A stretch of 64,000 bases of DNA from Candidatus Poriferihabitaceae bacterium (GTDB lineage Bacteria; Pseudomonadota; Gammaproteobacteria; Arenicellales; Poriferihabitantaceae), in NCBI GenBank assembly GCA_965204165.1, contig OZ241969.1, forward strand, positions 888,735 through 952,734, in the 5' to 3' direction. The notes under the pieces were generated by a model that was not told where the DNA came from, did not search any database, and saw nothing but the letters and a program-made list of their open reading frames with translations. The stretch's first letter is position 1. Each line of letters opens with the position of its first letter. The position numbers and the translations under genes are program-made. This document shows, one piece after another, positions 4,449 through 51,547 of this stretch.

Positions 4449-4805
4449 ATGTCGGCAGACCCGTTCATGATCCGATGCTCGCGCGCTGTTTTCACGAAAG
4501 TGGAAATCAGGGTACTCGAGGACCATGGCGGGCGGCTCGAACGGCTCGCCGACGGACGCCAACTGCCCGTCAACGAAGCGGGGAAGCGTTTCGTGGAGGC
4601 TGTCAACGGCACACGCGAGGCCGAGACGATCTACGAGAGAACCTGGCTGAAGTACCAGTGGCGTCTGGAATGGGAGCGGGACCCCGCCAACCGCGATGCC
4701 ATGGGCCCGCCCCGCAAGATGCACGATGATCGGGAAGACTGGAAGCGCATGAGGTCCGCCAACTGGGGGGAGATGGCACGTCGGGCCAGGGGCCTGGACG
4801 ACTGA
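4449..4805 (+). CDS. DUF413 / MaoP(YifE)-like protein
   Basis: FTKVEIRVLEDHGGRLERLADGRQLPVNEAGKRFVEAVNGTREAETIYERTWLKY parallels the E. coli YifE core FTIKEAQLLERHG...[31 protein letters not shown] (recalled from memory). The start could instead be ATG 4467. Confidence 0.6.
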   Translation: MSADPFMIRCSRAVFTKVEIRVLEDHGGRLERLADGRQLPVNEAGKRFVEAVNGTREAETIYERTWLKYQWRLEWERDPANRDAMGPPRKMHDDREDWKRMRSANWGEMARRARGLDD

Positions 4806-5524
4806 AACGCCAGACATGCCGGCAACGCCGGAGGCCCTTGGGTCCATTGGAATCCCGGATCCGGACAGCGCCTGCAAAACCGTGTCCGGGGCACGTTGAA
4901 TTATTCAACCATATCGCCCGGGAATCGAACGGATTCTCGGAAAACCTGACGATTCGCTGACAGCGTCTGCCCCCGTGTTGTGTGAGCGTGGTTGCTATTC
5001 GATTACCGGTTTCCTGGGGATTCAAGGAGAGGCGGGGCAAGGCTGCGCATGCTCATGGATTTTTACCGCGATCACGTGATGCCAAATCAGCAATTCCCCC
5101 GCACCGAAATTGACGGCGATGCACGCCATCCGGTGCACGTCGAAAAGGATGGTTCCTGCCGGTTCCCGCCCACGAAACCCTCACAATCCGGGCCGGAACA
5201 AACACGATGAACTCACAGTCTTTTGGTTAACATCCGGTTATCCGTGGCGCCGCCCCGTCACCGCCATGGCGGATTGCGGGAACGGCGCTGCCGAAGTTCC
5301 CGTGCCGCGCGGCCCGGGTTCAATAGAATGAAGTGCTGATGCTGATGCTGATGCCTGCAACCTCCACACCGGGAGAAACCCGAATGACGGATCCAATGCA
5401 AGAAGAACGCGCCCGGGAACCGGGCTCCATGGCCGCGAGCCACCCGGCCCTGGCGGTGGTTTCCGCCGTCCCGGAAGACGGGAAGAATGAATCCGCGGGA
5501 ATTCTCCGGAGAAGCAGGAAAGAG

Positions 5525-5552
5525 TTGACAGCGCGGCCGGGGCCGATAAAAT
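5525..5552 (+). promoter_or_regulatory. sigma70-like promoter TTGACA-N16-TAAAAT (copy 1)
   Basis: TTGACA at 5525-5530 and TAAAAT at 5547-5552. The identical motif and spacing are conserved at 32883-32910. It stands out in GC-rich DNA. Confidence 0.55.
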
Positions 5553-5555
5553 GCC

Positions 5556-8500
5556 TTGCCAGCGGCCAGCGGCCAGCGGCCAGCGGCCAGCGGCCAGCGG
5601 CCAGCGGCCAGCGGCCAGCGGCCAGCGGCCAGCGGCCAGCGGCCAGCGGCCCGAACTGCGTCTCCCGGCGACCGGCTTCCTCGACTAGGCTCCCCGCGCA
5701 GGCCTGACGCCCGCACCGGGCGTTCCCGCGCCCGCCGCCTCTCCCTCCTCCTTCCCGTCCTGGCGCTGCTGGCCGGGGCGTTTTTTCTGTTCGTCCCCGT
5801 GTCCAGCGCTGTGGCGAACCATAAGTTTCCGGTGCCGTCAAATATCCAAGTAACTGGTGGGAACGCGAGCGTCACGATTAGCTGGGATGCGGTTCCGAAC
5901 GCTGGCAATTACTTCATTGAAGGGCGGCAAGAGGGGGTGACCAACACCATTTCGGAGACGATTCCTGCTACATCTCAAACTTGGGGTCCGAGCGACGTTT
6001 GGCCAACAGGAAATGGCAATCAAGCGCTCGGAACTAGAAACGGCGTGACGTATCAGATGCGAGTTCGCGTGCTTTCGAACGGCGCCCACAGTTTTAGCGA
6101 GTGGTCGCAATGGTTCGATTTCACGCCAGCGCCCCTACCGCCCCCGTCGACCCCCCCGGCCTCACCCACGAACCTGCGCGTCTCCCCGGGCAACGGCAAG
6201 CTGAGCCTCACCTGGACCGCGCGACGACAGTACTTGGACGCGGTGACGGGCTACGACGTTCACTACACCTCGCTTTCGGCGGGCTATGCCCCCGACACGT
6301 GGCCGGCCTTGGACGAGTCCGAGTTCTATCGCTACCGCCCCGGCAATGGCTGGGTGGCGGTCTCGCGCACTGGCGATACGGCCTCGCAGGCGATTTCCGG
6401 CCTCACCCCCGGCACCGCCTACCGGGTGCGGGTGCGCGCGAAGAACCGTGTCGGCGTCAGCGACTGGGTGGTCATCAAGGGCACGCCGTCGGGCACGGCG
6501 CCCGGGGTGGTCGTCCCCGCGCTGGCCTCCGCAGACGTTCTGGTGAGCAACATTGGGCAGACGACGCGCTCCGGGGCCAGCGGCCTACGCACCTTCGTGA
6601 CCGGTCAGACATTCACCACCGGCGGTCCCGCTCCGGGTTACTTCTTGCAGAGCATTGAGGTGCTGATGAATTTCAACTTCAGCAGTCTCACCTCTGCTCA
6701 GCGATCAAAGATCAGGGCGGAGTTGTGGTCCGCCGACAGCAACGGGAAGCCATCTGCCAAACTTTATGACTTGGTGTTGCCGACGAACTTCAAGACCGGC
6801 ATCAACGCATTCGCGGCGCCACCGAATGCCAAGCTGAACGCCAATACGGCCTATTCCGTAGTCTGGTACACGATTGACTCAGCGTTTGCGGGTCTGTCAG
6901 TTAGGGGAACGAACTCACACGGCCACGACACCTCCGGATCGGGCTGGAGCATTGCCGACGACGGCTTTTACAAGACGGCAAATACGCCAGCTGGGGGAGG
7001 ATATCTCACTGGCTTCCGCCTGAAAATCCGCGTCAACGGCACGTTGGTGCCCAACACGGTCTCGCTCTCGGCCTCTCCGAACCCGGTGCGGGAGGGATCG
7101 CCGGTCACGGTGACGGCGACGCTGGGAGGACCGCTGAGCGAGGATGTGAGTATCCCGATCGCGACAGCGAGCGTCGCGAACGAAATCACGATCCCGAAAG
7201 GACAAACGACCGGAACCTACGTACACACGGCGGGAGACGCACCCGACGGCGAAATCAAGCGCGAACAGATGGTGGTCCTCAATCGGCTCCTGAAGCAGAT
7301 GAGACCGGCAATCGGGCTCGGCGACCCGTACCTGGTCAACGTGCAGGTCCTCGACGAGAATGCCGACCCGCCCAGGGTGTCGGTGTCGGACGCCAAGGGC
7401 TGGGAGCAGCTCAACAACTACGGGAGGCTGTGCTTCGAGTTCACGCTGGACCGCGCGGCGTCGCATGAGGTCTCGGTGAACTACTGGACCGAGGACGGCA
7501 CGGCGAAGGCGGGGCAGGACTACACGGGGAAAAGCCCCTTGTCGCTCGGCTTCGCGCCCGGCGAGACGCGCAAGAGCAGGTGCATCAGCATCATCGACGA
7601 CGGTGTCGAGGATTCGGGCGAGACGTTCTACGTGGTGCTGGGCAATCCGCCGGAGGGCGCGATCCTGGGCAGGGACCGGGGGACCGGGACGATCTACAAC
7701 CACGAGCCGACGAGTCTTTCCGGCCTGACGGCGGAGGGCGCGTCCGGCGAGGACGGGCCGTTCACGGCGCTGGACATCGGCACGTTCGCGCCGGCCACGA
7801 CGGCCTACACGGCGACGGTCCCGCACGGGACGACGCATGTGCGGCTGGTGCCGGCATCGGCGACGAACCGATACCTCCAGCTCATGACCGGCCTCGAGGG
7901 GGCAAGAATGACGCAGGTGGCCTTCGGCGGCGGGACCGGACCGGCGGTTGCGCTGGCGGTCGGCGAGAACGTGCTGGTCGTGAAGACGCAGTTCAACGGC
8001 CAGCGTCAGACCTACCGGGTGACGGTAACGCGCCAGGAGGCCCCCGCCGCGGTCGCGGTGTCGCTCTCGGCCACCCCGAACCCGGTGGCCGAGGGCGCAG
8101 CCGTCACGGTGACGGCGACGCTGGCGGAAGCGCTGGACGAGGCGGTGACGGTGCCGCTGACGGTGACCCGGGGCACGTCGGAGGACGGGGACCACGGGTC
8201 GCTCGCGTCTATCACGATTCCCGTGGGCGGCACGTCGGCCACGGGCACGATCTCCACGACCGATGACGCGGACGGGGACGACGAGACGTTCACGGTGGCG
8301 CTGGGCAGCCTGCCTTCGGGCCTGGCCGCGGGCAGCGCGTCCTCGGTGGAGGTGACGATCACGGACAGCGGGGTGCAGGAGCAGCAACAGCAGCAGCAGC
8401 GCACGGCGCCGCTGACGCTGAGCGGGCTGTCGGGGAGCACGAGCACGGACGGCTCGGACTTCGGCGGCACGCTGGACATCGGCACGTTCGCGCCGGGCAC

Positions 8501-10802
8501 CACGGAATACGCGGCGACGGTCGGGAACGCGGTCACGCACGTGAAGCTGACGGCGACGGCGGGCGAGGCCGGCGCGACGCTGAAGGTCGGCAAGGGCTCG
8601 AGCCTCGCGGCGGCGGCGGACGGGTCGGCGAGCGCCGCGATCGCGCTCAACGTGGGCGCCAACGCGCTCAGGGTGGAGGTGACGGCCGGGGACGGCACGG
8701 TGCGGACGTACACGGTGACGGTGACGCGCCGGGCGGCGCCGCTGACGGCGCGGCTGCAGGCCGCGGTCCAGGAGCATGACGGGGAGACGCCGTTCATGGT
8801 CGAGCTGGTGCTGAGCGAGTCGCTGGATTCGGGAAGCGGGTGGCCTTCGGCTGCGTCGTTCGACGTGAAGGGCGGGAGCGTGGCGAGCGTGCGGCGGTTC
8901 CGGCCGTACCTGTACCAGGTCCACATCCAGCCGAAGTCGTGGCGCGACGTGACGGTGACGCTGGCGGGCGGGCGCGGCTGTGAAGAAGAGGGCGCGATCT
9001 GCACGGCGGACGGCAGGTCGGTGTCGAACACGTCGACGCTGGCCTTCGGCGGCCCGGTGCGGATCCGCATCGAGGGCGCGCGGGCGAAGGAGGGCAAGGA
9101 TGCAAACCTGGACTTCGCGGTGACGCTGAACCGCGCGGCGGCGCATGACGTGTCGGTGGACTACGCGACCAAGGACGAGACGGCGACGGCGGGGGCGGAC
9201 TACACGGCCACGTCGGGCACGTTGACCTTCGCGGCGGGCGAGACGGCGAAGACGATCCGCGTTCCGGTGCTGGACGACGCCATCGACGAGGGCAGGGAGG
9301 TCATGCGGATGATGCTGTCGAACCCGAAGGGCGCGTACCTCCGGGGCGTCCACACGAAGGCGCGGGGCATCATCGTGAACGACGACGCGCTGCAGCGGGC
9401 GTGGCTGTCGCGCTTCGGCCGCATGGCGGGAAGCCACGTGACGGACGCGGTGTCCGGCAGGCTCGAGGGCGACCTTGCGCCGGGCACCCACGCGACGCTT
9501 GCGGGCCAGGCGCTGGACCTGTCGGGCGGGGAGGACGGCGATCCGCTGATGGACGTGCTGACGGGCCTTGCCCAGCGTTCCGGTTCACCGGCGCCGGACG
9601 ACGGCGATCCGTTCGCGCGCCTCGGCGCCGGGGACCGCTGGAATGATTCCGGCCTTGCGGGAACAGCGGGAACAGCGGGAACAGCAGGAAACACGGGAAA
9701 AATCTCGATGACGGGCCGCGAGGTCCTGCTGGGGAGTTCGTTCCACACGGCGGGCCGGATGGACGGCTCTGGTCCGGGCCTCGCGGCCTGGGGCCGGGTG
9801 GCGCATGGCGGCTTCGACGGTGAGCAGGCTTCCGATACGGGCCGCCTCGGCATCGACGGCGAGGTGACGACGGGGACCCTGGGGACGGACGCCGACTGGG
9901 GCCGGATGCTGGCCGGGGTGGCGATCGGCCTGAGCGAGGGCGAGGGCACGTTCGAGGACTCCGGCGCGGAAACCGGTTCGAAGGGCAGCCTGGAGAGCAC
10001 GATGACCACGGTGAGCCCCTACGGCCGCTACGAGGTCACCGACCGGGTGTCGGCCTGGGGCCTGGTGGGCTGGGGCACCGGCGACATGACGGTCTCGTTC
10101 GACGACGGCACGGCCCAGGTGAGGACGGACCTGTCGCTGCGGATGGGCGCCCTGGGAGCCCGTGGGGTACTGCTGGAGCAAGGCGGGAAATACGGGAAAG
10201 ATGGCATGGACCTCGCGCTGAAGGCGGACGCGCTGTACGTGCGGACGGACTCCGACAAGGCCGCGAACTCCGTAGCGACTGAAGCGAAAACAAACCGGGT
10301 GCGGTTGCTGCTGGAGGGCGGGCGGACGTACGAACTGGATGAAGGCAGGACGCTCCGGCCCGTGCTGGAACTCGGCCTTCGCCATGACGGCGGGGACGCG
10401 GAGACGGGGACGGGCGTGGAGATCGGGGCGGGCGTGAGCTACGCCAACCCGCTGACGGGCCTGTCGCCGACCTTCGGGACGCCTTCGGGTTCGGCGGACC
10501 GTCTGTGGGGCGCGAGGGACGCCCGGGGGCTGGCGCCTGGAGGTAAGTTCGATGCCGGCCGGGGTCTCCGGGCCGAGGCGGGCTACGGGATTCCGGTGTA
10601 CGGCGGCCGGTACACGGGCACGCCGAACGTGGGCTATGGCGCGTCGGACGGCGGAGCGACCGACTGGCGCGTGGGCTGGCGGCTGGAGCCGGTCCGGACG
10701 GAAGGGCCGCGGATCGGTCTCAGCCTGGACGCGGTGCGGAGCGAGCCCGCGGATGGGGACGCGAGGCACGGCGTGCTGCTTCGGGGGGCGATCCGATGGT
10801 AG
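5556..10802 (+). CDS. giant autotransporter-like surface protein 1 (FN3, Calx-beta and cadherin-like passenger; C-terminal beta-barrel)
   Basis: 1748-aa ORF.
- Signal-peptide-like RRLSLLLPVLALLAGAFFLFVPVSSAVA.
- FN3-like segments (LSLTWTA...GYDVHY...GTAYRVRVRAKN).
- Calx-beta-like segments (VNYWTEDGTAKAGQDYTG...GETRKS..IIDDGVEDSGETF).
- Cadherin-like beta-sandwich segments (LSGL...FAPATTAYTATV...VRL...YRVTVTR).
- C-terminal glycine/aromatic beta-strand region ending RGAIRW.
The start is uncertain: TTG 5556 is the only in-frame start upstream of the signal peptide. Confidence 0.85.
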   Translation: MPAASGQRPAASGQRPAASGQRPAASGQRPAARTASPGDRLPRLGSPRRPDARTGRSRARRLSLLLPVLALLAGAFFLFVPVSSAVANHKFPVPSNIQVTGGNASVTISWDAVPNAGNYFIEGRQEGVTNTISETIPATSQTWGPSDVWPTGNGNQALGTRNGVTYQMRVRVLSNGAHSFSEWSQWFDFTPAPLPPPSTPPASPTNLRVSPGNGKLSLTWTARRQYLDAVTGYDVHYTSLSAGYAPDTWPALDESEFYRYRPGNGWVAVSRTGDTASQAISGLTPGTAYRVRVRAKNRVGVSDWVVIKGTPSGTAPGVVVPALASADVLVSNIGQTTRSGASGLRTFVTGQTFTTGGPAPGYFLQSIEVLMNFNFSSLTSAQRSKIRAELWSADSNGKPSAKLYDLVLPTNFKTGINAFAAPPNAKLNANTAYSVVWYTIDSAFAGLSVRGTNSHGHDTSGSGWSIADDGFYKTANTPAGGGYLTGFRLKIRVNGTLVPNTVSLSASPNPVREGSPVTVTATLGGPLSEDVSIPIATASVANEITIPKGQTTGTYVHTAGDAPDGEIKREQMVVLNRLLKQMRPAIGLGDPYLVNVQVLDENADPPRVSVSDAKGWEQLNNYGRLCFEFTLDRAASHEVSVNYWTEDGTAKAGQDYTGKSPLSLGFAPGETRKSRCISIIDDGVEDSGETFYVVLGNPPEGAILGRDRGTGTIYNHEPTSLSGLTAEGASGEDGPFTALDIGTFAPATTAYTATVPHGTTHVRLVPASATNRYLQLMTGLEGARMTQVAFGGGTGPAVALAVGENVLVVKTQFNGQRQTYRVTVTRQEAPAAVAVSLSATPNPVAEGAAVTVTATLAEALDEAVTVPLTVTRGTSEDGDHGSLASITIPVGGTSATGTISTTDDADGDDETFTVALGSLPSGLAAGSASSVEVTITDSGVQEQQQQQQRTAPLTLSGLSGSTSTDGSDFGGTLDIGTFAPGTTEYAATVGNAVTHVKLTATAGEAGATLKVGKGSSLAAAADGSASAAIALNVGANALRVEVTAGDGTVRTYTVTVTRRAAPLTARLQAAVQEHDGETPFMVELVLSESLDSGSGWPSAASFDVKGGSVASVRRFRPYLYQVHIQPKSWRDVTVTLAGGRGCEEEGAICTADGRSVSNTSTLAFGGPVRIRIEGARAKEGKDANLDFAVTLNRAAAHDVSVDYATKDETATAGADYTATSGTLTFAAGETAKTIRVPVLDDAIDEGREVMRMMLSNPKGAYLRGVHTKARGIIVNDDALQRAWLSRFGRMAGSHVTDAVSGRLEGDLAPGTHATLAGQALDLSGGEDGDPLMDVLTGLAQRSGSPAPDDGDPFARLGAGDRWNDSGLAGTAGTAGTAGNTGKISMTGREVLLGSSFHTAGRMDGSGPGLAAWGRVAHGGFDGEQASDTGRLGIDGEVTTGTLGTDADWGRMLAGVAIGLSEGEGTFEDSGAETGSKGSLESTMTTVSPYGRYEVTDRVSAWGLVGWGTGDMTVSFDDGTAQVRTDLSLRMGALGARGVLLEQGGKYGKDGMDLALKADALYVRTDSDKAANSVATEAKTNRVRLLLEGGRTYELDEGRTLRPVLELGLRHDGGDAETGTGVEIGAGVSYANPLTGLSPTFGTPSGSADRLWGARDARGLAPGGKFDAGRGLRAEAGYGIPVYGGRYTGTPNVGYGASDGGATDWRVGWRLEPVRTEGPRIGLSLDAVRSEPADGDARHGVLLRGAIRW
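5558..5651 (+). repeat. heptanucleotide tandem repeat (GCCAGCG) x13 plus partial unit
   Basis: Hand count gives perfect units starting at 5558 with 7-nt period through 5648, then GCC. In the ORF frame this reads (PAASGQR)n. Confidence 0.95.
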
Positions 10803-17933: not shown

Positions 17934-18723
17934 GTGCTGAGCATGGATGACAGATTGGAAGTGAGGTTCTCTATCCAGCCCTGTGGCGGCGAATGGACAG
18001 TGAAGCGAAAGGACGCGTCGCGACGCATCGTCTGAAGTAAGCGTGTAACAAAGCTGCGATTCGATGAACAGGCACAGGATACGAGGCCTGCCCGGCAGGA
18101 CGAGCGGGCATATGGCCGCGAAGTTCACGGCCATGAAGGGCCAGGGCGTTAGATTCGGTGGTTGTGCAGCGAAGGCGGCCAGTCTTGCCTCGGGAGGTCT
18201 GTGTCGTGTCCGGGAACCCCGGACTGATCGGGTGGTAAGGTTTGTGATCGCGGCATGGATGCCGACGGAGGGCATAGTAACCGGATATCCGGCGAAGGCT
18301 CGAACGGCGGAGAGGGTCATCAGGGCGGCAGGCTCGTGAGTGCAGAGCGGCGGAATATCCATCTGGAGTTGGCTTTGGGACCGGTGGCGATGGTTGAAGC
18401 CCGGAGCGACGGTGGCCAAGGGAGCGGAGTACGCATGGCGCGTACCGACACCGAACGCCTTCTTTCATTGCCAGTTCGGGTTCGTCTCTTGAAAAGCCTC
18501 GGGTCGCTAAATCCGTCAACCGCCGTGTACGGATCCGTATTCGTATACGGTGGTGTAGGGGGGCGGAAAGAATAGGGCCAGGAAGTATGGGACCGGTAAT
18601 TAAGGAGCCGGTAAGTATGGAGCTGGAAAAAACCAGATTCGCACTTGCCGGAGGGGGGAATGATGTCTCTGCGGGACATGCCAATATCCAACAGACCCCG
18701 GAATCCGATGGAGGATGGGATCT

Positions 18724-19443
18724 ATGACCCCTTGGTTGGCCCAGCCCTGGTTTCAGCCGGACGGTTCCAGTGAGGAGGTGATGCGCGGGCTCCGCCGCAT
18801 GGCATGGGACCTTGGCGTGGATCATTTCTTCTTCGTCATGCCGCGGGGGGCTGATGGCCTGCCCCGGAACGGGGACGAGCCGGTTTCCCTGTCGAATCTT
18901 CCCCGCCGGTGGCGGGACCGGTACGCGGAACGGGAGTACCACCGGCTTGACCCGGTACTCCAGCTGGCGTCGCGGAAGGTCCGGCCCTTCTACTGGTGGT
19001 GGGAGGAATTTCCGCGCTCCCTGCCGAAGGCGCAGCGCCGGGTGCTGGTGGAAGCCGGACAATACGGCCTTCTCAACGGCCTGGCGATCCCGGTGCGTGG
19101 GACGCACGGCTCGTTCGGCGTGCTCGGCCTCGTGGATGCCGACGCCGCGCGGCTGCGCTCGGCGACCCTGAATGAGCACGGGCGTCTCTGGGCGGTGGCG
19201 CTGGACGTGCACGACTTCCTGCTCGGGCAAGCTACAGGCCCGAATCCGGTCCCGAATCTCAGTGAGCGGGAGCGGGTGTGTCTTGCGCTGACCCTGGAGG
19301 GTTATGAAGCGTCCCGGGTATCCGCCGAAATTGGCTTGTCGAAATTTTCGGTGAATAAGTACGTGTCCAGCGCGCAGCGCAAGCTGGGTTGTGGGAACAA
19401 GTTCGAGGCGGCGATGCAGGCCATGCGCCTGGGATTGTTGTGA
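18724..19443 (+). CDS. LuxR-family regulator (autoinducer-binding-type N domain plus HTH)
   Basis: The C-terminal LSERERVCLALTLEGYEASRVSAEIGLSKFSVNKYVSSAQRKLGCGNKFEAAMQA is a LuxR/GerE HTH. The N domain has the Y..DP... and W motifs of AHL-type receptors. GGAGGA SD sits 8 nt before ATG 18724 (alternative start 18715). No luxI is visible. Confidence 0.8.
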   Translation: MTPWLAQPWFQPDGSSEEVMRGLRRMAWDLGVDHFFFVMPRGADGLPRNGDEPVSLSNLPRRWRDRYAEREYHRLDPVLQLASRKVRPFYWWWEEFPRSLPKAQRRVLVEAGQYGLLNGLAIPVRGTHGSFGVLGLVDADAARLRSATLNEHGRLWAVALDVHDFLLGQATGPNPVPNLSERERVCLALTLEGYEASRVSAEIGLSKFSVNKYVSSAQRKLGCGNKFEAAMQAMRLGLL

Positions 19444-19667: not shown

Positions 19668-19699
19668 ATACAGCAAACGAAAACATGATAAAGGAGACT

Positions 19700-22600
19700 A
19701 TGGAAAACGAACCTGAAAGTCGATTTGTTACCGGGCGTGATATAAATTTCTTGAAGGCCAGAGGTGTGACGTGTGCCCGGCGCCTGGCCGGCGCGCAACG
19801 GACGGCCCCACCAGCTTCGTCAGACCCCTCCCGGTTTGACAGGCGCCCCAGGCGCTCGCGCAGCCGTTTTCCCGGTTTCTCCCGTCTCCTCACCGCTCTT
19901 GCGGCACTGGCCGGTGCGCTCACCCTGTTTGCCGCCGCACCGGAGCCGGCGCAGGCGCAATTCGTCCCGCCGCCGGACACCCCGCAAAACGTGAAAGTGA
20001 CAGTGGGAAACGCAAAACTGACGCTGACATGGCAGGCGCCGTCGTCCTGGGGCAGCGGATCGGCGATCGGCTACCAGGTCGACTGGTTTTCCGGTCCTGC
20101 AGCTCCGGCTCATACATCGGCCGAATGGCAAAGGGTCGTCTATAACCAGCAGTTCGAGGCCTCTGCCACCGAGACCAGCTTCACCTTTTCCGGCAACGTT
20201 TACTCCCGCGTCCACGATGGCACGAATTGGGAGCGCGGTCATCACTCGGTCGCCAACGGGAACCAGTATCACCTGCGGTTGCGGGCGGCCAGCACGAAAC
20301 CCGGTGACAACACGGATATTTTGGTAAGCGACTGGGTGACGGTCAGCGGCACGCCGCAGGGGACGCAGCAGACCTGGTCCACGAACGCGAACCTGAGCGC
20401 ACTCACGGTGGGCAGCGCCACGAGTTCGGGCGACCAATACACGGATTTCAGCATCGGGACCTTCGGGGCGACGGTGGCGAGCTACACGGCGTCGGTGGCG
20501 AACGACCAGACGCATGTGAAGGTGACGCCGACGGTTGCGGACACCGGCGCCACGGTGGGGGTGCGCAAGGGGACGTCGGGGAATTTCGATTCGGTGACGA
20601 GCGGCCAGGCGAGCGGCGCCATCGCGCTCGACGTGGGGGCGAACACGCTCGTGGTGCGGGTGACGGCCGAGGACGGGTCGACCAAGGACTACACGGTCAC
20701 GGTGACGCGGCGGCAGGCGCAGCAGACCTGGTCCACGAACGCGAACCTGAGCGCGCTCACGACGGGCAGCGCCACGAGTTCGGGCGGCCAATACACGGAT
20801 TTCAGCATCGGGACCTTCGGGGCGACGGTGACGAGCTACACGGCGTCGGTGGCGAACGACCAGACGCATGTGAAGGTGACGCCGACGGTTGCGGACACCG
20901 GCGCCACGGTGGGGGTGCGCAAGGGGACGTCGGGGAATTTCGATTCGGTGACGAGCGGCCAGGCGAGCGCGGCGATCGCGCTCGACGTGGGGGCGAACAC
21001 GCTCGTGGTGCGGGTGACGGCCGAGGACGGGTCGACCAAGGACTACACGGTCACGGTGACGCGGCGGCAGGCGCAGCAGGCTCGGTCCACGAACGCAAAC
21101 CTGAGCGCGCTCACGGCGAGCACGTCCACGAGTTCCGGAGGCACGTTCAACGGGTTGACGCTGACGCCGTCGAGCTTCTCGGCTTCGAGGACGAGCTACA
21201 CGGCATCGGTTTCGAACACGCAGACATATTTGAAGCTGACGCCGACGGTTGCGGACACGGGCAAGGCTACCGTGACCGTGCAGGGCACTTCGGTGACAAG
21301 CGGCACGGAGAGCGGAGAGATCCTGCTCAGCGTTGGGTCGAACACGCTCACGGTTCGGGTGATGGCCGAGGACGGGTCGACGGTGAAGGACTACACGGTC
21401 ACCGTCACGCGGAGAGCGGCGCAGCAGGCCCGGTCCACGAACGCAAACCTGAGCGCGCTCACGGCGAGCACGTCCACGAGTTCCGGAGGCACGTTCAACG
21501 GGTTGACGCTGACGCCGTCGAGCTTCTCGGCTTCGAGGACGAGCTACACGGCGTCGGTTTCGAACACGCAGACATATTTGAAGCTGACGCCGACGGTTGC
21601 GGACACGGGCAAGGCGACGGTTGGGGTGCGCAAGGGGAGCGGGGGCAGTTTCATGCCGGTAACGAGCGGCAGCGCGAGCGGAGCGTTCGCGCTGGACGTG
21701 GGCGCGAACCCGATCACGGTGCGGGTGACGGCCGAGGACGGGTCGACGACGAAGGACTACTCTGTCGCCGTCACGCGGCAGGCGCAGCAGGGCCCCGCCC
21801 CCACGGTGATGCTGTCGGCCGCGCCGAACCCGGTAGACGAAGGTTCCTCGGTGACGGTGACTGCGACGTTGTCCGCGGCCCTTTCGAGCCAGGTGACGAT
21901 ACCGCTGACGATCGCCGACGATACGGCCGAGCCCGAGGATCACGGGACGCTGACGGGCATCGCGATTGCCTCCGGCGCGACCAGCGGCACGGGGACGATC
22001 ACCACGGCGCAGGACGCCGACACCGAGGACGAGACCTTCACGGTGGCGCTGGACGCGGCGAACCTGCCGGCGGGGCTGCGTGCGGGCGTTCCGGCCTCGG
22101 TGGAGGTGACGATCCGCGAGGGCGAGGTTCCTGCGGACACGTCCACGAACGGCGTTGCGCCGGATCCACGACGCGGGGCGGTTCAGGACGCGGTGAAGCG
22201 TGCGCTGGCGGCGTCGGCCAGGCGTGCGATGTCGAGCGCGCTGGAGAACATCGGTGCGCGGTTCGGCGACATTGGCGCGAGCGGGCTATCGCTGGCGGGC
22301 CGGTGGGTGCCTCTGGAGGGCGGCGCCGCGAAGGCGGCCCTGTATGGAGGCGGCGGGTCCGGGTTCTGCGCGGCAGCGGGGTCCCCCGGCTGCGCGGCGG
22401 GATGGAGCCGTTCGATGACGGCGGGCGAGCTGTTGGGGGCGAGCGCGTTCTCGCTGCACCTGGGCGCGTCGGAGGGTGCGGAAAACGCGAATGGCGCCGT
22501 TCCGCCGGGGCCGCTGTGGTCGGTGTGGGGCCGCGGGGATCTCGGGACCTTCGAGGGCCGTGGGGACCCCGGCCTTGGCTACGACGGGAAGCTGCGCACG

Positions 22601-23605
22601 GGCTGGGTCGGGTTTGACGCGCGGGCCGGGACCTGGGTGGCGGGCCTGGCGGTGAGCCACGGGGCGGGGGAGGCGGACTATGCATTCGCCGATGACGGCC
22701 TGCCGGGGGGTCGCCTGGAGACGGAGCTGACGTCGTTCTATCCCTACGGGCGGTGGACGCTGGGCGACGGCCTGGAGTTGCGCACGGTGGCGGGCGCGGG
22801 CTGGGGCGAGGCGGAGCACGGGCCGGCGGGCGCGGCGCGGGAGTCCGGGGACCTGACGATGCGGATGGCGTCGCTGGGGGTCAGGCGTGCGCTTGCGGAT
22901 GTCGGCGGGATGGAGATCGCGCTGCGCGCGGACGGGAGCGTGACGCGGATCGGGACCGACGGCGGTCCGGACGCGATCCACGGCCTGACGGCGGACGGCT
23001 GGCGGCTGCGCGCGGGCGTGGAGGCGTCGCGGCGCCTTGCGCTGAGGGGCGGGCGGATCCTGGAGCCGTTCCTGGAGGCGGCGGTCCGGCGTGACGGCGG
23101 CGACGGTCTTGAGGGCAGCGGGGTGGAGCTTGCCGGCGGGGTGCGCTATGTGGCGCCGGGTGTGTCGGTGGAGGCGCGCGGGCGCTGGCTTGCGGCGCAC
23201 AGCGAAGACGGGGCGGAGGAGACGGGGGTGAGCGTGACGGCCCGGGCCGGTCCGGGTTCGGACGGGCGGGGGCTGTTCGTGGCGCTGAGTCCGCGCTGGG
23301 GCGCGGGGACGGGCGGCGCCGTGGCGCTGTGGGGCGCCGGGCTGCCGCGGCCGTCGGGTTCGGGCGGCGGGGGCGTCCTGGACGCGCGGGTGGGCTACGG
23401 GATCGCGTTGCGCGACGGGGCGGGTCTGCTGACGCCGTTCGCGGAGGCGGGTCTCGGGGACGGCGAGAGCCGTCGCCTGCGTCTCGGGACGGGGTTCGAG
23501 AGGCGGCGCACGGGCCTTCGGCTGGAGGTTGCGGGCGAGCGCCGCGAGGACGCGTCGGCGGAGCCGGAGCATGCGCTCCGGCTGGACCTGGGGCTGCGGT
23601 TCTGA
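19700..23605 (+). CDS. giant autotransporter-like surface protein 3 (FN3, 4 tandem cadherin-like domains, Calx-like domain, beta-barrel)
   Basis: ATG 19700 follows AAGGAG. The leader RFPGFSRLLTALAALAGALTLFAAAPEPAQA is signal-peptide-like. FN3-like KLTLTWQAPSSWGSGSAIGYQVDW. Four 116-118 aa repeats. C-terminal beta-domain ending LDLGLRF. Confidence 0.85.
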   Translation: MENEPESRFVTGRDINFLKARGVTCARRLAGAQRTAPPASSDPSRFDRRPRRSRSRFPGFSRLLTALAALAGALTLFAAAPEPAQAQFVPPPDTPQNVKVTVGNAKLTLTWQAPSSWGSGSAIGYQVDWFSGPAAPAHTSAEWQRVVYNQQFEASATETSFTFSGNVYSRVHDGTNWERGHHSVANGNQYHLRLRAASTKPGDNTDILVSDWVTVSGTPQGTQQTWSTNANLSALTVGSATSSGDQYTDFSIGTFGATVASYTASVANDQTHVKVTPTVADTGATVGVRKGTSGNFDSVTSGQASGAIALDVGANTLVVRVTAEDGSTKDYTVTVTRRQAQQTWSTNANLSALTTGSATSSGGQYTDFSIGTFGATVTSYTASVANDQTHVKVTPTVADTGATVGVRKGTSGNFDSVTSGQASAAIALDVGANTLVVRVTAEDGSTKDYTVTVTRRQAQQARSTNANLSALTASTSTSSGGTFNGLTLTPSSFSASRTSYTASVSNTQTYLKLTPTVADTGKATVTVQGTSVTSGTESGEILLSVGSNTLTVRVMAEDGSTVKDYTVTVTRRAAQQARSTNANLSALTASTSTSSGGTFNGLTLTPSSFSASRTSYTASVSNTQTYLKLTPTVADTGKATVGVRKGSGGSFMPVTSGSASGAFALDVGANPITVRVTAEDGSTTKDYSVAVTRQAQQGPAPTVMLSAAPNPVDEGSSVTVTATLSAALSSQVTIPLTIADDTAEPEDHGTLTGIAIASGATSGTGTITTAQDADTEDETFTVALDAANLPAGLRAGVPASVEVTIREGEVPADTSTNGVAPDPRRGAVQDAVKRALAASARRAMSSALENIGARFGDIGASGLSLAGRWVPLEGGAAKAALYGGGGSGFCAAAGSPGCAAGWSRSMTAGELLGASAFSLHLGASEGAENANGAVPPGPLWSVWGRGDLGTFEGRGDPGLGYDGKLRTGWVGFDARAGTWVAGLAVSHGAGEADYAFADDGLPGGRLETELTSFYPYGRWTLGDGLELRTVAGAGWGEAEHGPAGAARESGDLTMRMASLGVRRALADVGGMEIALRADGSVTRIGTDGGPDAIHGLTADGWRLRAGVEASRRLALRGGRILEPFLEAAVRRDGGDGLEGSGVELAGGVRYVAPGVSVEARGRWLAAHSEDGAEETGVSVTARAGPGSDGRGLFVALSPRWGAGTGGAVALWGAGLPRPSGSGGGGVLDARVGYGIALRDGAGLLTPFAEAGLGDGESRRLRLGTGFERRRTGLRLEVAGERREDASAEPEHALRLDLGLRF
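20366..21790 (+). repeat. four tandem 348-354 bp coding repeats (cadherin-like beta-sandwich units)
   Basis: Unit starts (CAGCAG) at 20366, 20720, 21074 and 21422. Units 1 and 2 are nearly identical. Units 3 and 4 are nearly identical in the first half. The second half of unit 4 resembles units 1 and 2. Confidence 0.9.
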
Positions 23606-24764: not shown

Positions 24765-24974
24765 ATGAGAAACGTGGCAGTCCCGTCGCTCGCAGCATTC
24801 GTCCTGCTGGTGAGTTCGTCGGTTTGTGCGGACGACCGGAACACCGCAATCGAGGTGACGGACCGTCCCACGCTGAGGGAATTTGTCGAAGGCGCGAAAG
24901 ACTATCTGGAAGGTGTCACGACGCTCTCGGAGACGGCGCGGCTGCGCGGTATCTTTCGAACCGAGATCACGTGA
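24765..24974 (+). pseudogene. short secreted-protein ORF ending at the RIT insertion point (possible N-terminal gene fragment)
   Basis: MRNVAVPSLAAFVLLVSSSVCADD... signal-peptide-like start. The reading frame ends exactly where the RIT terminal repeat begins. Confidence 0.35.
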
Positions 24975-25122
24975 TGCCAAATAATGCAGCGGACCAAATA
25001 ATGCAGCGGACGGATCCTGAAACCCCGAAAGACAAGGCGATCCGGAATTTGTCCGCTGCATAATTTTCTGAACGGCCCTGGTTTGGGATAGTCGTGTTTC
25101 CACTTGATTTGGAGAAACGACC

Positions 25123-26349
25123 ATGTTCGAGAATCTATTCGTTCGTCCCGAAACCCTGAAACGTTACCGCGCCGCCCCCCTTCTTGAGGAACGGCTGGGT
25201 TACCTCCGTCATTACGCGGAAACGGGAGCCCGTCCGGACACACTGCGCCATATCGCCGGTGAGCAGATCACCCTGGTTCGCCTGCTGGACCTGCGTCAGG
25301 GAGATCAGGTGACCGCAGCCAAGGTCGGGGATGCGGTTGACCGGTCAGGGCTGGAGCCCGCCAGGCGTCAGAGCCTGCTCTGCCGCGCAATGCGATGGCT
25401 GCGTTTCGCCGACATGCTGGAGGAGGAGGAAGCCCAGGAGGTGCCAGGGCATGCGCACACGGAGGAAGTCGCGACCTACGAGGCGTGGATGCGCAATGAG
25501 CGCGGATGGTCGGCAAAGACGATCGAGAAGTACCTCTTTACGGTCAACCGGTTTTTCGACAGGCTGGATGAGCGCGGAGGCGGCCTGGCTTCGGTCGGGT
25601 TCGAAGACATCGACCGGGAGATCGCCTGCTGGCACGCCCGGGGCTGCCGCCGGGTGACGGTTCGTTCATACGCCAATGCACTCCGTCGATTCTTCCGGTT
25701 CGCGGAAAGCCGGGGCTGGTGCCCACAGGGACTGTCCGACGGGATCATGCCGCCGTGCTTCCGTCCCGACGAGAAGATCCCGAAGGGGCTGAAGCGGGAA
25801 GAGGTGGTGCGGCTGCTGGCCTCCACCGAGGGCGACCGGCCGGCAGACGTCCGGGACCGCTCCATCCTGATGCTGCTGGTGGCCTATGGCCTGTGTGCCG
25901 GTGAGGTCGCCGGCCTGCGGCTCGACAATTTCGACTGGAAAAACGAGACGCTCGACGTCCGCTGTCCGAAGGTCGGACGGACACACCGCTATCCGCTGTC
26001 GCGCGGCGTCGGGCAGGCGGTCCTGCGTTATCTGCGGGAGGTTCGGCCCCCGCGCCCGGAGCGAACGGTATACTTCACATTGCAGGCGCCGATCCGTCCG
26101 CTGTGCACCAGAGCCGTATCACATCTCGTGAGAAAGCGCCTCCAACGGCTTGGCATCACCGGCAAACCCTGCGGCCCGCATGCACTGCGCCATGGCGCGG
26201 CACAGCACCTGCTCGACCACGGCCTGTCGTTGAAGGAGGTCGGCGATTATCTCGGCCACCGCAGCACTTCGGCGACGTTGGTTTATGCCAAGGTACAGCT
26301 CAGCGCCCTGCGCGAGGTCGCCGACATCGACCTGGAGGGCCTGGCATGA
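25123..26349 (+). CDS. tyrosine recombinase, RIT subunit A
   Basis: 408 aa. C-terminal HALRHGAAQHLLDHGLSLKEVGDYLGHRSTSATLVYAK (R-H-R-Y family box II). Confidence 0.85.
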   Translation: MFENLFVRPETLKRYRAAPLLEERLGYLRHYAETGARPDTLRHIAGEQITLVRLLDLRQGDQVTAAKVGDAVDRSGLEPARRQSLLCRAMRWLRFADMLEEEEAQEVPGHAHTEEVATYEAWMRNERGWSAKTIEKYLFTVNRFFDRLDERGGGLASVGFEDIDREIACWHARGCRRVTVRSYANALRRFFRFAESRGWCPQGLSDGIMPPCFRPDEKIPKGLKREEVVRLLASTEGDRPADVRDRSILMLLVAYGLCAGEVAGLRLDNFDWKNETLDVRCPKVGRTHRYPLSRGVGQAVLRYLREVRPPRPERTVYFTLQAPIRPLCTRAVSHLVRKRLQRLGITGKPCGPHALRHGAAQHLLDHGLSLKEVGDYLGHRSTSATLVYAKVQLSALREVADIDLEGLA

Positions 26350-32336: not shown

Positions 32337-32882
32337 TTGCAGAAAATTATGCAGCGGACAAATTCCGGATCGCCTTGTCTTTCGGGGCTTCAGGATCCGT
32401 CCGCTGCATTTTTTGGTCCGCTGCATTATTTTCCATGACGCATTGCACATCTGCCAAAGTCGGTGTCCCCACTCGGCCAGTATTGGCGGCGCCGCCGGTC
32501 CTGCCGACCATCGGCTGGATTGCTGCCGCCGGGTTTTCCACCCGGAAACCTCACTATTCGGGCCAAAACAAACACAACTAACTCATAATCATTCGGTTAT
32601 GGTCCGGTCCCGCCGCCATGGGTTGCGGGAACGGCGCCGCTGAAGTTCCCGTGCCGCGCGGCCCGGGTTCAATAGAATGAAGTGCTGATGCAGATGCCCG
32701 CAACGATGCCTGCAACCTCCACACCGGGAGAAACCGAAATGACGGATCCAATGCCAGAAGAACGCGCCCGGGAACCGGGCTCCATGGCCGCGAGCCACCC
32801 GGCCCTGGCGGTGGTTTCCGCTGTCCCGGAAGACGGGAAGAATGAATCCGCGGGAAGTTTCGGGAGAAACTGCAGGAAAGAG

Positions 32883-32910
32883 TTGACAGCGCGGTCGGGG
32901 CCGATAAAAT
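32883..32910 (+). promoter_or_regulatory. sigma70-like promoter TTGACA-N16-TAAAAT (copy 2)
   Basis: TTGACA at 32883-32888 and TAAAAT at 32905-32910, the same arrangement as 5525-5552. Confidence 0.55.
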
Positions 32911-32915
32911 GCCTT

Positions 32916-33029
32916 GCCAGCGGCCAGCGGCCAGCGGCCAGCGGCCAGCGGCCAGCGGCCAGCGGCCAGCGGCCAGCGGCCAGCGGCCAGCGGCCAGCGG
33001 CCAGCGGCCAGCGGCCAGCGGCCAGCGGC
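32916..33029 (+). repeat. heptanucleotide tandem repeat (GCCAGCG) x16 plus GC
   Basis: Hand count gives perfect units from 32916 through 33027. ATG 33030 follows immediately. Confidence 0.95.
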
Positions 33030-35753
33030 ATGACGTGTGCCCGGGGCCCGGCGCCCGGCTGGCGTATCCCATCCCATCCGGCATCATCGGCCTCGGCAGG
33101 TTCCCCGCGGCCTGACCCCCATCCCGGGCGCGCCCGCGTCCGCCGCTTCCCGCTGATCCTCCCCGTCCTGGCGCTGCTGGCCGGGACGCTCTCCCTGTTC
33201 GCGCCGGTGGAGGCGCAGGCCACTCCGGGCATCCCGGGGAACGTCCAGGTGACCGCGGGGGATGCGGCGCTGACGCTGACCTGGCAGGCGCCGTCGACCT
33301 GGGGCAGCACATCGGCGCGGGGCTACGAGATTGACTGGTACGCCGGCGCCACCGCCCCGGACAGCGATTCGCACGATTGGAAACAGGCGAATTCCGTTGG
33401 TTCTCCGATTTCGGCCAGCGCGACCAGCTATACGTTTACCGGCGCCTATGGCAGCCATACGGTAGCCAACGGCACCAAATACTGGTTGCGGATCAGGGCG
33501 ACGAGCGTCCATCCCACGGATAGCGACGACTACCTGGCCGGACATTACGCGACGCCTGTGAGCGGCACGCCGCAGGCGCAGACCGCGCCCGCGGCGCCCA
33601 CGAGCCTGACCGTCACCGCGGGCGACACCCGGCTGTCCCTGAGCTGGACCGCGCCTTCGGGCACGCTGACGGGCTACGACGTGCACTACACCTCGGCGGC
33701 CGCGACCGGCAGCAATTCGGTCGCGAACGACGCGGCTGTGCAGACCGGCGCTGCGTCGGCGGGCTGGGTGGCGGTCTCGCGCGGCACCGAGACCTCGCCC
33801 CCGACGGCTTCGCAGACGATTTCGTCGCTGACCAACGGCACCGCCTACCGGGTGCGGGTGCGGGCGAAGAACGCCGCCGGCGGCGGCGCCTGGGTGTTCG
33901 GCACGGGTACGCCGAAGACCCCCACCATGGAGTTCGAACTGGACACCTTTCTGGTGGTGGAGAGCGACACGGACCCCGAGGCCGCCAAGGTGCTGATCAG
34001 CCCGGCCCCGGCGGAGCAGACGACGGTGCAGATCCGGGTGCGCTCGTACGGCAACGCGTCGCCGGCGGACTTCACCCTGACCACGACGACGCTCACCTTC
34101 GCCGCGGGCGACACGGAGAAGTCCTTCGGGGTGCTTGCGGCCGCGGACATGTTGACCGAGGGCAACGAGGTCGTCACGCTGGAACTGGTTGCGGTGGCCA
34201 GCGCCCCCTACACGCTGGGGACGCAGGACAGCATAGAGTTCGTCATCGTCGACGACTCTTTCGAGCCGGGCGAGCCGGGTCTGACGTCGCTCACAGCGGT
34301 GGAGTCGGGCGCCAACAAGCCGACGGCGACGACGCTGAGCTTCACGGTGGCATGCGCGACGGCAGACTCCGGCTTTCCGCTCACCGATTACCACGTGCAT
34401 GCCGTGGCCCAGGGCGTCGCGGGGCTGGAGCGCACCTATTTTTTCCCGGAGAGCAAGTGCGGTTCCAACGGTCCGGTGACGCTGACGGGCCTGCCGCTGC
34501 GCCCGACGGCGACGACCTGGCGGGTCCGGGCGCGGGCGCGGGCCATCCGCGGACACAAAGGGGTTTGGTCGAGTACGGTCGACCTGGCGACGCTGGCCGA
34601 CCCCGCGCAGCAGAATGCCGCGGCGCTGACGGCGACGTTTGCGGGCGTGCCTTCGGCGCATACGGGCAACGACCGGAGGTTCAGCTTCACGGTGAACTTC
34701 AACGTTTCGGTGGACGGCGGCCAGGCGCCGACCAGGCGGTCGTTCGAGACCTCCGAAGGCTCGGTCATGCAAGTGGTGCGGGTCTCGGGGAAGAAGTGGA
34801 CGGTGCATGTCCGGCCGCATTCGTGGCGCAAGGTCGGGATAGCGCTCCGGGGCGGTCGGAGCTGCGACGACCCGCACGCGGTGTGCGCGACGGGCGGGCG
34901 GGCGCTGACGACCAGCCCGCAGGCGAGCGTCGGCGGCGCGGCGCGCATCCGGGTGAGCAGCCACTGGGCCAGGGAGGGCACGGAAAAGCCGGTCCGCTTC
35001 ATCGTGAAGCTCAACCGCGCGGTGTCGCACGAAGTGCGGGTGGACTACGCGACGAAGGACGGCGTGGGCATGCTCGGGGGGAACGCGCCGGCGACGGCGG
35101 GGTCGGACTACACCGCGACCTCCGGCACGCTGGTGTTCGAGGAGGGCGAGCGGCGCAAGATGGTCGACGTCGCGGTGCTCGACGACAGCATCGACGAGGG
35201 CTCGGAGTATTTCCTGCTGGCGCTGTCGAACCCGCAGGGCGCCCATCTGCCGCACCGGCAGGTCGAGAGGGTGGGTCTCATCCGGAACGACGACGCGCTG
35301 CAGCGGGCGTGGCTCTCGCGCTTCGGCCGCACGGTGGGAAGCCACGTGACGGACGCGGTGTCCGGCAGGCTCGAGGGCGACCTTGCGCCGGGCACCCACG
35401 CGACGCTTGCGGGCCAGGCGCTGGACCTGTCGGGCGGGGAGGACGGCGATCCGCTGATGGACGTGCTGACGGGCCTTGCCCAGCGTTCCGGTTCACCGGC
35501 GCCGGACGACGGCGATCCGTTCGCGCGCCTCGGCGCCGGGGACCGCTGGAATGATTCCGGCCTTGCGGGAACAGCGGGAACAGCGGGAACAGCAGGAAAC
35601 ACGGGAAAAATCTCGATGACGGGCCGTGAGGTCCTGCTCGGGAGTTCGTTCCACACGGCGGGCCGGATGGACGGCTCGGGCCCCGGCCTCGCGGCCTGGG
35701 GCCGGGTGGCGCATGGCGGCTTCGACGGCGAGCGGGTGTTAGGACTCACATAA
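33030..35753 (+). pseudogene. autotransporter-like surface protein 2, truncated in the beta-domain by transposon insertion
   Basis: MTCARGPAPG...RRFPLILPVLALLAGTLSLFAPVEAQA leader, with FN3 and Calx-like domains. Sequence 35288-35736 is nearly identical to 9378-9833 of protein 1. Homology then stops at ...HGGFDGE and the frame ends RVLGLT* inside foreign DNA. Confidence 0.85.
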
Positions 35754-48822: not shown

Positions 48823-48883
48823 TTTTCTGAACATCCGGTTCAGCCCCTATCACCTATCCAACCAACTTCCCCGGAGGTAACCG

Positions 48884-51339: not shown

Positions 51340-51547
51340 AACCGGTGTATCATTCGCTCGTCCACGCAACCCCAAAGGAAAAGGGCGCCACGCTCACGAT
51401 CCGCTACCGGGTGCCGGGAAACTCCTGGGTCATCCATCTTTCGCGGCCGCCGGTTCGGACCGTTGCGAACCGTCGCAAAAAATTTCATGGCGGCATGCCC
51501 GGCTGAAAAATGCCGGATCGCTTCCATCGAATAACTGAAAAACCACG

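Follow-up and report, generated by a model that had tools for sequence, protein, structure and literature searches.

A 64,000-nucleotide stretch of contig OZ241969.1 from a Candidatus Poriferihabitaceae bacterium (here termed the window) contains a perfect array of the heptamer GCCAGCG located between a promoter-like site and a gene for a very large surface protein. An earlier note on this DNA interpreted the array as a contingency locus, in which gain or loss of units by slipped-strand mispairing switches the reading frame of the gene. The question raised by this locus is whether the array controls expression in that manner, in some other manner or not at all. Comparison of this locus (copy 1) with a second copy in the window and with related loci in other assemblies led us to lean towards a reading in which large type-V-like adhesin genes have a conserved 5′ expression cassette, whose hypermutable repeat, the tract, exerts graded control, with copy 1 itself being a relic.

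Analysis with Tandem Repeats Finder (TRF) detected the array of copy 1 as a period-7 repeat with 13.4 copies, 100% matches, 0 indels and a score of 188. The tract has 13 full units (5558-5648) followed by GCC and sits upstream of the adhesin gene in open reading frame (ORF) 5556-10802. A two-unit probe had 27 matches in the window, relative to 0.14 expected from shuffled sequences, and all 27 were inside this tract or a second tract at 32916-33029. The promoter-like site has a TTGACA hexamer (5525-5530) and a TAAAAT hexamer (5547-5552), with a 16-nt spacer, matches 11 of 12 consensus positions, is the sole site of this kind within 4800-6200 (0.3 expected) and ends 5 nt before the tract. The repeat is a real feature and not a product of chance; the TRF output, the shuffles and the consensus match all bore out the original description of a (GCCAGCG)13 array following a promoter-like site and preceding a surface-protein gene. 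The features of copy 1 are as follows.

5190-5524, + strand: upstream part of the repeated 5′ cassette, common to 32560-32882 (alignment of copies 1 and 2)
5525-5552, + strand: sigma-70-like promoter, TTGACA, 16-nt spacer, TAAAAT (11 of 12 consensus positions)
5558-5651, + strand: perfect heptanucleotide repeat, (GCCAGCG)13 plus GCC (TRF)
5652-5720, + strand: ATG-less variant of the family N-terminal leader (alignment with canonical cassettes)
5721-5816, + strand: signal-peptide coding region, RSRARRLSLLLPVLALLAGAFFLFVPVSSAVA (translation)
5556-10802, + strand: copy 1, an ORF of 1748 codons that encodes a type-V-like adhesin (Pfam domains fn3, LapA, Cadherin-like and Calx-beta; C-terminal outer-membrane barrel)

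The second tract belongs to a paralogous gene. Alignment indicated that copies 1 and 2 are related over ~370 nt upstream of the tract, through the promoter and in the region past the tract. The copy-2 tract ends directly before an ATG (33030), with the junction reading ...GCCAGCG GC ATG ACG TGT GCC CGG..., and this ATG is in frame with MTCARG...RVRRFPLILPVLALLAG, an N-terminal extension that is followed by the signal peptide.

32883-32910, + strand: promoter-like site of copy 2, with hexamers and spacing as in copy 1
32916-33029, + strand: second tract, (GCCAGCG)16 plus GC (TRF, 16.3 copies, 100% identity)
33030-35753, + strand: copy 2, a paralogous adhesin gene with canonical start and signal peptide (translation)

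Fifteen homologous cassettes were found outside the window, in metagenomes and metagenome-assembled genomes (MAGs) of the sponge Aplysina aerophoba and in other metagenome or MAG records of unverified source. A probe of four tract units, searched against one genome per species, matched at least 117 stretches in many high-GC taxa; only two of these share the architecture of the window, namely, L102 from Rhodospirillaceae MAG bin65 and L050 from a Vicinamibacteria MAG. A junction probe, consisting of two units plus GCATGACGTG, was searched against metagenomes and gave ten more loci, eight of them from assembly MKWU01. Homology to the C-terminal domain identified 645 proteins, whose contigs yielded cassettes L128, L129 and L132. 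MKWU is an Illumina assembly of the A. aerophoba microbiome, and MPMX is the alphaproteobacterial bin65 (66% GC) of the same study (PMC5649159). The three cassettes reached through protein homology read as follows.

L128, tract 2682-2758: TTGACA-N16-TAGAAT-gccttg-(CCCAGCG)11-GC-ATG; TRF phase (GCCCAGC)11
L129, tract 974-1077: TTGACA-N21-TATAAT-G-(GCCCAGCG)13-GC-ATG; an octamer, with alternative phase (GGCCCAGC)13
L132, tract 2235-2314, − strand: TTGACA-N15-CATAAT-(CCCAGCGG)10...ATG

The cassettes have a common order of −35 hexamer, −10 hexamer, 1 to 6 nt, repeat, GC, ATG, a leader of ~35 residues (MTCARR...) and a classical signal peptide, and the signal-peptide region of copy 1 is conserved in those outside cassettes whose sequence reaches so far. 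The 15 outside cassettes all retain both promoter hexamers, and the spacers measure 15 to 21 nt in 14 of them (all but L121). A short-unit array is always present between the −10 box and the start and is perfect except for one interruption in L121. The unit is GCCAGCG, CCCAGCG or GCCCAGCG; these variants share the core CCAGCG and are one mutational step apart. An array that varies in sequence and period (7 or 8) at one cassette position, and stays perfect, is a case of concerted evolution. The L128 counterpart of 5190-5524 is much more diverged than that of copy 2.

Several further observations were made during these searches. The hexamers are 20 to 21 nt apart in L050, L102, L118 to L127, L129 and L133 and 15 to 16 nt apart in the window, L128 and L132. 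A second, degenerate promoter and a short tract remnant (TATAATTAGCCAGCGGCCAGCGGGCAAGCGG) are located ~110 nt upstream of the tract of L119, whose own cassette looks functional, which suggests a local duplication of the cassette head. Among unrelated high-GC genomes with GCCAGCG arrays, one Planctomycetota MAG (JALHRW01) has dozens, often at contig ends and intermixed with ACCAGCG and GCCAGCA units, while the Marichromatium arrays (L023, L043, L077, L091 and L112) precede a recurring GATTGAACCGCAAAG element. The leader alone (60 residues), used as a protein query, gave one uninformative match; exact-sequence look-ups of three window proteins, and of P0002 and P0173 from a 4.99-Mb contig encoding a nearly identical C-terminal domain, matched no record; and a plasmid database contained no match to the cassette.

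The position of the start codon bears on the relationship between the tract and the reading frame. The tract lies between the −10 box and a conserved ATG, which opens the MTCARR... leader and signal peptide, in copy 2 and in 14 of the 15 outside cassettes, a count that is biased for the ten loci found with the junction probe, as this probe contained the ATG. Eight tract-bearing loci were found without such bias. The ATG is present in six, of which L050 and L102 came from the tract-only scan, L128, L129 and L132 from C-terminal-domain homology and the sixth is copy 2; it is absent from copy 1 and L133. The gap between tract and ATG is 2 nt in most loci, including five of these six, and 9 nt in L132. 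Between the ATG and the signal peptide, indels are multiples of three in all of the loci covering the region except L125, in which a poly-C run breaks the frame, and this preservation of frame indicates that the conserved ATG is the start.

No comparable start was observed on the other side of the tract. The tract sequence offers no possible start codon, and the short stretch from the −10 box to the tract differs between loci (TT, TA, AGA, GTA, AA, TG, G or GCCTT) and often contains none; the junctions there read TATAATTA, TATAATAGA, TATAATAA and TACAATTA, so that a start codon in this position is not conserved. As the only conserved start lies after the tract, the tract would be an untranslated leader in the canonical cassettes. 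The location of the AUG 2 nt from the tract, together with the absence of a −10-like sequence within it, implies that at least the 3′ part of the tract is transcribed, and a sigma-70-type start 6 to 8 nt past the −10 box would make the tract the entire 5′ untranslated region (UTR). No Shine-Dalgarno sequence was detected in the cassette; other window genes have GGAGG or AAGGAG. By sequence, the repeat is therefore placed between promoter and start, as in genes of the hmw type, with transcription being suggested by the closeness of the AUG. Coupling through an ATGA overlap, in which the TGA of an upstream ORF overlaps the ATG in L050 and L102, was considered and rejected, as the frame is unconserved across loci and the ORF lies upstream of the promoter.

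Unit numbers at the GCCAGCG loci outside the window were 4, 18, 7, 10, 9, ~6, 5, 6, 5, 5, 9 and 12; with 13 and 16 in the window, the overall span across loci is 4 to 18. Changes were apparent between loci with matching flanks. L118, L120 and L126, from three datasets, have identical flanks (330 nt upstream and ~100 nt downstream) and 7, 9 and 9 units, respectively. L102 and L121 share 99.9% identity over 1045 nt downstream and have 18 versus ~6 units. Two 6.18-kb copies of L133 exhibit 0 mismatches over 5488 nt and a single 7-nt gap, corresponding to 11 versus 10 units. In the window, both tracts are perfect even though the upstream flanks of copies 1 and 2 differ at 18 of 292 aligned positions (6.2%), an outcome with a probability of ~0.004 if the tracts had been substituted like the flanks. 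These comparisons between assembled loci indicate that slippage far outpaces substitution. A long, perfect, short-unit repeat, unit numbers that differ where flanks match and a surface-type product were all found, and the pattern of unit numbers across the family supports what a contingency locus predicts. Comparison of sequences thus establishes the architecture of the cassette, where the tract lies with respect to the conserved start and a rapid change in unit number. The contig carrying L133/L134 (ENA ERZ26693581 ctg345509_1x_c) is 15.3 kb long, is labelled 1x coverage and contains the 6.18-kb unit ~2.5 times, due to either a tandem duplication or a concatemer artefact.

Copy 1 does not have the canonical start. 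It has CCG at the position of the family ATG, and alignment indicated that the leader following this position is partly in another frame. Furthermore, it has an in-frame loss, at about nt 10460, of 41 barrel residues that are conserved relative to 38 homologues. These residues are kept in L128 and in P0002 (4.99-Mb contig), the latter matching copy 1 at ~97% identity apart from the gap. A one-off lesion of copy 1 as the cause of the missing ATG was ruled out by the presence of the same ATG-less leader in L133, where the promoter has a 21-nt spacer and the passenger shares only 66% identity; the variant is thus found beyond copy 1. In L133, a frameshift falls inside the first fn3 domain of both 6.18-kb copies. 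As both of the start-less genes have a second lesion, decaying or silent copies are favoured over a working translational switch. On these alignments copy 1 is probably silent or in decay, and its tract is most likely a still-slipping relic rather than a working switch. Dependence of a functional 1748-amino-acid adhesin on the tract, as had been proposed, is doubtful in view of the ATG-less leader and the 41-residue barrel deletion, and annotation of the 1748-codon ORF as a functional, phase-variable adhesin should be avoided.

The other members of the family in the window have different states. Family homology of copy 2 stops at 35736 and the barrel is missing (BLAST and tblastn), while its L128 orthologue, which is 96% identical, runs on into a full barrel; copy 2 is, as judged from these alignments, truncated. 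A BLAST search of the cassettes against the window identified a third member, with a barrel homologous to that of copy 1. This member lacks a tract. What remains of the cassette is a TATAAAT sequence and a single degenerate unit, GCCAGAG (19757-19763), with a GTG (19766) where the family ATG would be; further upstream, an AAGGAG is followed by an ATG (19700) in frame. It looks intact. A LuxR-family gene with autoinducer-binding and GerE domains (18715-19443) is directly upstream of it. The ORFs between copy 2 and the transposase gene listed here had no Pfam match.

19685-23605, + strand: ORF of the third family member, with the remnant cassette site at 19741-19768
37570-39210, − strand: rve/Mu-type transposase gene (rve/Mu-transposase-C), downstream of copy 2

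How could the repeat act from an untranslated leader? As RNA or single-stranded DNA, the GCCAGCG array can pair with itself through GCGGCC blocks with bulged A's, giving 6 bp per 7 nt and ~−5.3 kcal/mol per unit. In the mechanism that we propose, transcription would begin within the first repeat unit, at a predicted start, making the repeat essentially the whole 5′ UTR and placing its end 2 nt before the AUG, with no Shine-Dalgarno sequence. Slipped-strand mispairing would gain or lose whole units, a process that the quasi-palindromic unit and its hairpins may favour. The number of units would then alter the length of the leader and of a GC-rich hairpin at the 5′ end, against the AUG, and a longer or shorter leader could tune transcript yield, stability or initiation in a graded way, such that the reading frame is not switched. 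We infer both the transcription start and any effect on expression; by analogy with hmw1A and hmw2A of Haemophilus influenzae, a length-dependent, graded effect is most likely.

A number of results weigh against this interpretation of the tract and of copy 1. The minimum free energy of the UTR plus leader was no better than that of shuffled sequences (z = 0.30 and 0.05), the predicted accessibility of the start codon was flat at four or more units for all three unit types, and RNAalifold detected no covariation. RNAalifold did pair the last unit and the AUG with the signal-peptide codons GCGCUGCUG, which are constrained by coding. CCCAGCG pairs with itself more weakly than GCCAGCG, which speaks against a specific hairpin. 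A spacing of 20 to 21 nt between hexamers is abnormal for sigma-70, and the assignment of the promoter in these relatives may be wrong; an activator, another sigma factor or a −10-only promoter are possibilities. The presence of the ATG in the junction probe detracts from the start-codon count, as described above. For copy 1, the leader without an ATG could be a functional variant, as it is shared by two loci whose promoters are of different types, and the gene still has an open frame of 5.2 kb. G-quadruplex or i-motif formation was also considered and rejected, as this potential exists only in the CCCAGCG and GCCCAGCG variants and is hence not a shared property.

The arithmetic underlying a reading-frame switch in copy 1 was reproduced. 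TTG 5556 is the only start in the adhesin frame before the signal peptide (the nearest upstream stop is TAA 5547), no ATG, GTG or TTG is present in frame between the tract and the signal peptide, ATG 5551 enters the adhesin frame at +1 or −2 units, and the upstream ORF (GTG 5333, ATG 5339...) enters it at −1 or +2 units. Translation starting before the tract, at a TTG that is in frame at 13 units, would generate a (PAASGQR)n peptide, and gain or loss of units would toggle the adhesin by frameshift in the manner of the CTCTT repeat of Neisseria opa; the ATG-less subclass would then be derived, having captured a UTR repeat into the coding region. This explanation, which we consider rather improbable, has in its favour that no stop interrupts the frame between the tract and the signal peptide, that neither period (7 or 8) is divisible by 3 and that the ATG-less leader recurs in L133 beside a different promoter type and a passenger of low identity, where an upstream start in only one of the three frames would allow clean OFF states. 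In copy 1, however, a start codon precedes the tract in all three frames, and hence no unit number would yield a clean OFF state. Moreover, the TTG of copy 1 begins 4 nt past the −10 hexamer and should fall upstream or at the very edge of a transcript from the promoter that the earlier note had itself described; the TTG of L133, 1 nt past the −10 hexamer of that locus, should likewise be outside the transcript. The other proposed starts are no better placed, with ATG 5551 inside the −10 box and the ORF from 5333 beginning before the promoter. A start before the tract is not conserved in the family, the family start being the ATG after it, and canonical cassettes do not have the opa-type arrangement of a repeat downstream of the functional start. 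The disabling second lesion in each ATG-less gene (barrel deletion or fn3 frameshift) also counts against a working switch. Frameshifting is not the mechanism of the family and is unlikely for copy 1; of the contingency locus originally proposed, the hypermutable repeat beside a surface-protein gene is supported and the switching of the reading frame is not.

If the frame is not switched, the tract might have no function at all. A quasi-palindromic, GC-rich repeat could be a neutral by-product of mutation, homogenised between paralogues by gene conversion and with no effect on expression. Such an origin would fit with the at least 117 contig stretches with tracts of four or more units in many unrelated high-GC taxa (for example, Streptomyces, the Planctomycetota MAG and Marichromatium), with the persistence of the tract on the apparently dead genes copy 1, copy 2 and L133, with a third member that functions, or at least looks intact, in the absence of a tract and with the lack of a fold or covariation signal. 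We nevertheless judge it unlikely: the repeat is held at the exact position between −10 box and ATG in spite of flanks that have diverged by at least 20%, is kept even where the sequence or period of the unit has changed and, in a cassette without a Shine-Dalgarno sequence or other UTR, cannot be irrelevant to initiation. Another explanation assigns function to the CCAGCG core, which could provide a multi-site platform in the mRNA leader or in promoter-proximal DNA, such that unit number sets the capacity for binding of a regulator or of ribosomal protein S1 and the platform takes the place of a Shine-Dalgarno sequence. The core is common to three unit variants with a spacer of G, C or GC, the tract abuts an AUG devoid of the GGAGG or AAGGAG carried by other window genes, and TAACTGA heptamers located a few nucleotides before starts in Beggiatoaceae and cyanobacteria, for which a role of this type has been suggested, provide a precedent (PMC4679880). 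The probability of this explanation is nonetheless low in our estimation; no candidate for the bound protein was identified, descent accounts equally well for the common core, with each variant being one mutational step from GCCAGCG, and a GC-rich, strongly self-pairing leader would be a poor substrate for S1. Graded control from a repeat within the leader remains the reading that we prefer.

The product of these genes was examined for its relationship to autotransporters. An N-terminal Sec signal peptide and a passenger of repeated adhesin-type domains, as expected of type Va proteins, were found. For the C-terminal domain of copy 1, Pfam gave only sub-threshold OmpA and OMP_b-brl matches, and a sequence search of the PDB gave no match. 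PF03797 was detected in about a dozen of the 120 homologues listed (645 in total), with one being named an autotransporter barrel. An AlphaFold model based on 39 sequences (predicted local distance difference test score, 75.6) was an all-beta barrel of ~15 to 16 strands; the translocator of type Va proteins (PF03797) has 12. Foldseek matches to this model were weak (template modelling scores of 0.35 to 0.54) and were divided about equally between TonB-dependent receptors and autotransporter beta-domains, including those of BrkA, EspP, Hbp, NalP and AIDA-I. The designation as an autotransporter is thus verified only in part: PF03797 is present in some homologues, the model is a generic outer-membrane barrel and the copy-1 C-terminus by itself is below the PF03797 threshold. 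Type-V-like surface protein is a fair description, with strict type Va membership being unproven.

Besides the Mu-type transposase gene, the window contains many mobile elements. The only Rfam match at gathering thresholds was to group II intron D1-D4 RNA (85.6 bits), at 18014-18183, with no family matching the tract or the leader, and no tRNAs were found in the window. Two 101-nt inverted repeats (24970-25070 and 32340-32440; 95% complementary) enclose a segment of ~7.3 to 7.4 kb that contains a tyrosine recombinase gene (25123-26349), ends ~120 nt before the copy-2 cassette and is probably a mobile element. A backbone resembling that of an integrative and conjugative element (ICE) or a plasmid extends from 46460 to 61627 and encodes a ParB-HTH protein (51861-54344), DUF3150, a DUF2201 metallopeptidase/VWA protein and a 1684-amino-acid Strawberry-notch-type helicase (56573-61627). 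A low-GC stretch (50%; 42922-44115) contains a 96-nt tandem repeat of 3.9 copies (42965-43338) inside an ORF with a C-terminal Swt1-like HEPN domain. Related loci adjoin TraL/TraE/TraK genes, a Peptidase_S24 gene with HTH_17, and IS66; the family genes are often on integrative or conjugative elements. Homologues of the passenger or barrel occur in sponge-associated or environmental MAGs from several phyla, including Candidatus Synechococcus spongiarum. Horizontal spread is plausible, with binning errors as an alternative.

The closest analogue of the sponge-symbiont cassette is the (ATCTTTC)n repeat of H. influenzae hmw1A and hmw2A (PMC12721329; PMC8262952). There, a transcribed heptamer in the 5′ UTR sets the level of adhesin inversely to the number of units, via a hairpin and RNase III (PMC12721329). 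In both systems, a heptamer follows the promoter and precedes the start codon of a gene for a very large secreted adhesin, within a 5′ UTR that is putatively transcribed in the case of the cassette; two paralogous loci per genome have different unit numbers; and the repeat is part of a long hairpin, which for the cassette is a prediction with folding no better than that of shuffles. The differences are, however, considerable. Neither repeat nor protein is homologous, no two-partner-secretion domain is present here, and HMW1A is a two-partner-secretion (TpsA) protein without a C-terminal barrel of its own. The hmw repeat forms one arm of the hairpin, with a separate G-rich arm and a longer UTR, whereas the cassette has a GC-rich, self-complementary repeat that adjoins the AUG and would make up almost all of the UTR. 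For hmw, it has been demonstrated that expression depends on the number of units and that RNase III processing takes place; both are hypothetical for the cassette. HMW1, like the cassette protein, has an unusually long N-terminal signal region.

Other systems share some of these properties. In Moraxella catarrhalis, uspA2 reportedly has an (AGAT)n repeat in the 5′ UTR and uspA1 a poly(G) tract. Repeats of this type, located between the transcription start and the start codon, modulate the level of an autotransporter-type adhesin and not its frame; the uspA genes differ from the cassette in encoding trimeric autotransporters, in having tetranucleotide or homopolymer repeats and an AT-rich host and in the absence of a shared multi-gene cassette. 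The (CTCTT)n repeat of Neisseria opa follows the ATG and is translated, as it forms part of the sequence coding for the signal peptide. As with opa, the cassette heads a multi-gene family of surface proteins with a conserved 5′ end and a repeat unit that is not a multiple of 3; unlike opa, the ATG of the cassette family is downstream of the repeat. In the vlp family of Mycoplasma hyorhinis, paralogues with divergent surface-exposed regions have in common a conserved 5′ cassette made up of a repeat-bearing promoter, a UTR and a signal peptide; there, the repeat is a poly(A) tract in the promoter spacer and the products are lipoproteins. Repeat-driven, stochastic control of adhesins is textbook knowledge for pathogens adapted to their hosts, such as Haemophilus, Neisseria, Moraxella and Mycoplasma. 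The TAACTGA heptamers of Beggiatoaceae, cyanobacteria and Bacteroidetes end a few nucleotides before starts, in intergenic regions without canonical ribosome-binding sites and with a patchy taxonomy (PMC4679880). Tandem heptamers a few nucleotides upstream of starts, the lack of a canonical ribosome-binding site and patchy taxa are common to these arrays and the cassette; the TAACTGA arrays differ in being AT-rich, in having mostly 2 to 6 copies and in preceding genes of all functional classes, with no reported hypervariability or link to adhesins. The logic of the cassette appears to match that of the known 5′-UTR repeat rheostats. In the searchable literature, where absence is unproven, no paper was found that describes the GCCAGCG repeat or ties such control to sponge symbionts, and these adhesin genes headed by a repeat, of which some come from sponge symbionts, apparently form a family not described before.

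If unit number tunes expression, sponge symbionts would bet-hedge the display of eukaryote-like adhesins with fn3, cadherin-like and Calx-beta domains. Such domains are thought to mediate host recognition, and their variation would bear on persistence in a phagocytic host. In a more speculative reading, to which we give only a slim chance, the cassette, with its promoter, repeat leader and extended signal peptide, is a mobile, recombining expression head that is common to adhesin genes on integrative or conjugative elements of several sponge-symbiont lineages and operates in two modes. In start-bearing copies, repeat length would set expression by a novel type of initiation control independent of a Shine-Dalgarno sequence, and start-less copies with an otherwise open frame, such as copy 1, would form silent reserves, to be re-armed by recombination via the common repeat and leader or by slippage that places an upstream start in frame. 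Were this to be true, antigenic and phase variation like that of pathogens would be present in the mutualists of an early-branching animal. The family also provides a natural series for initiation from a repeat UTR devoid of a Shine-Dalgarno sequence, as its members have 4 to 18 units, of three variants and with a period of 7 or 8, and either carry the start codon or lack it.

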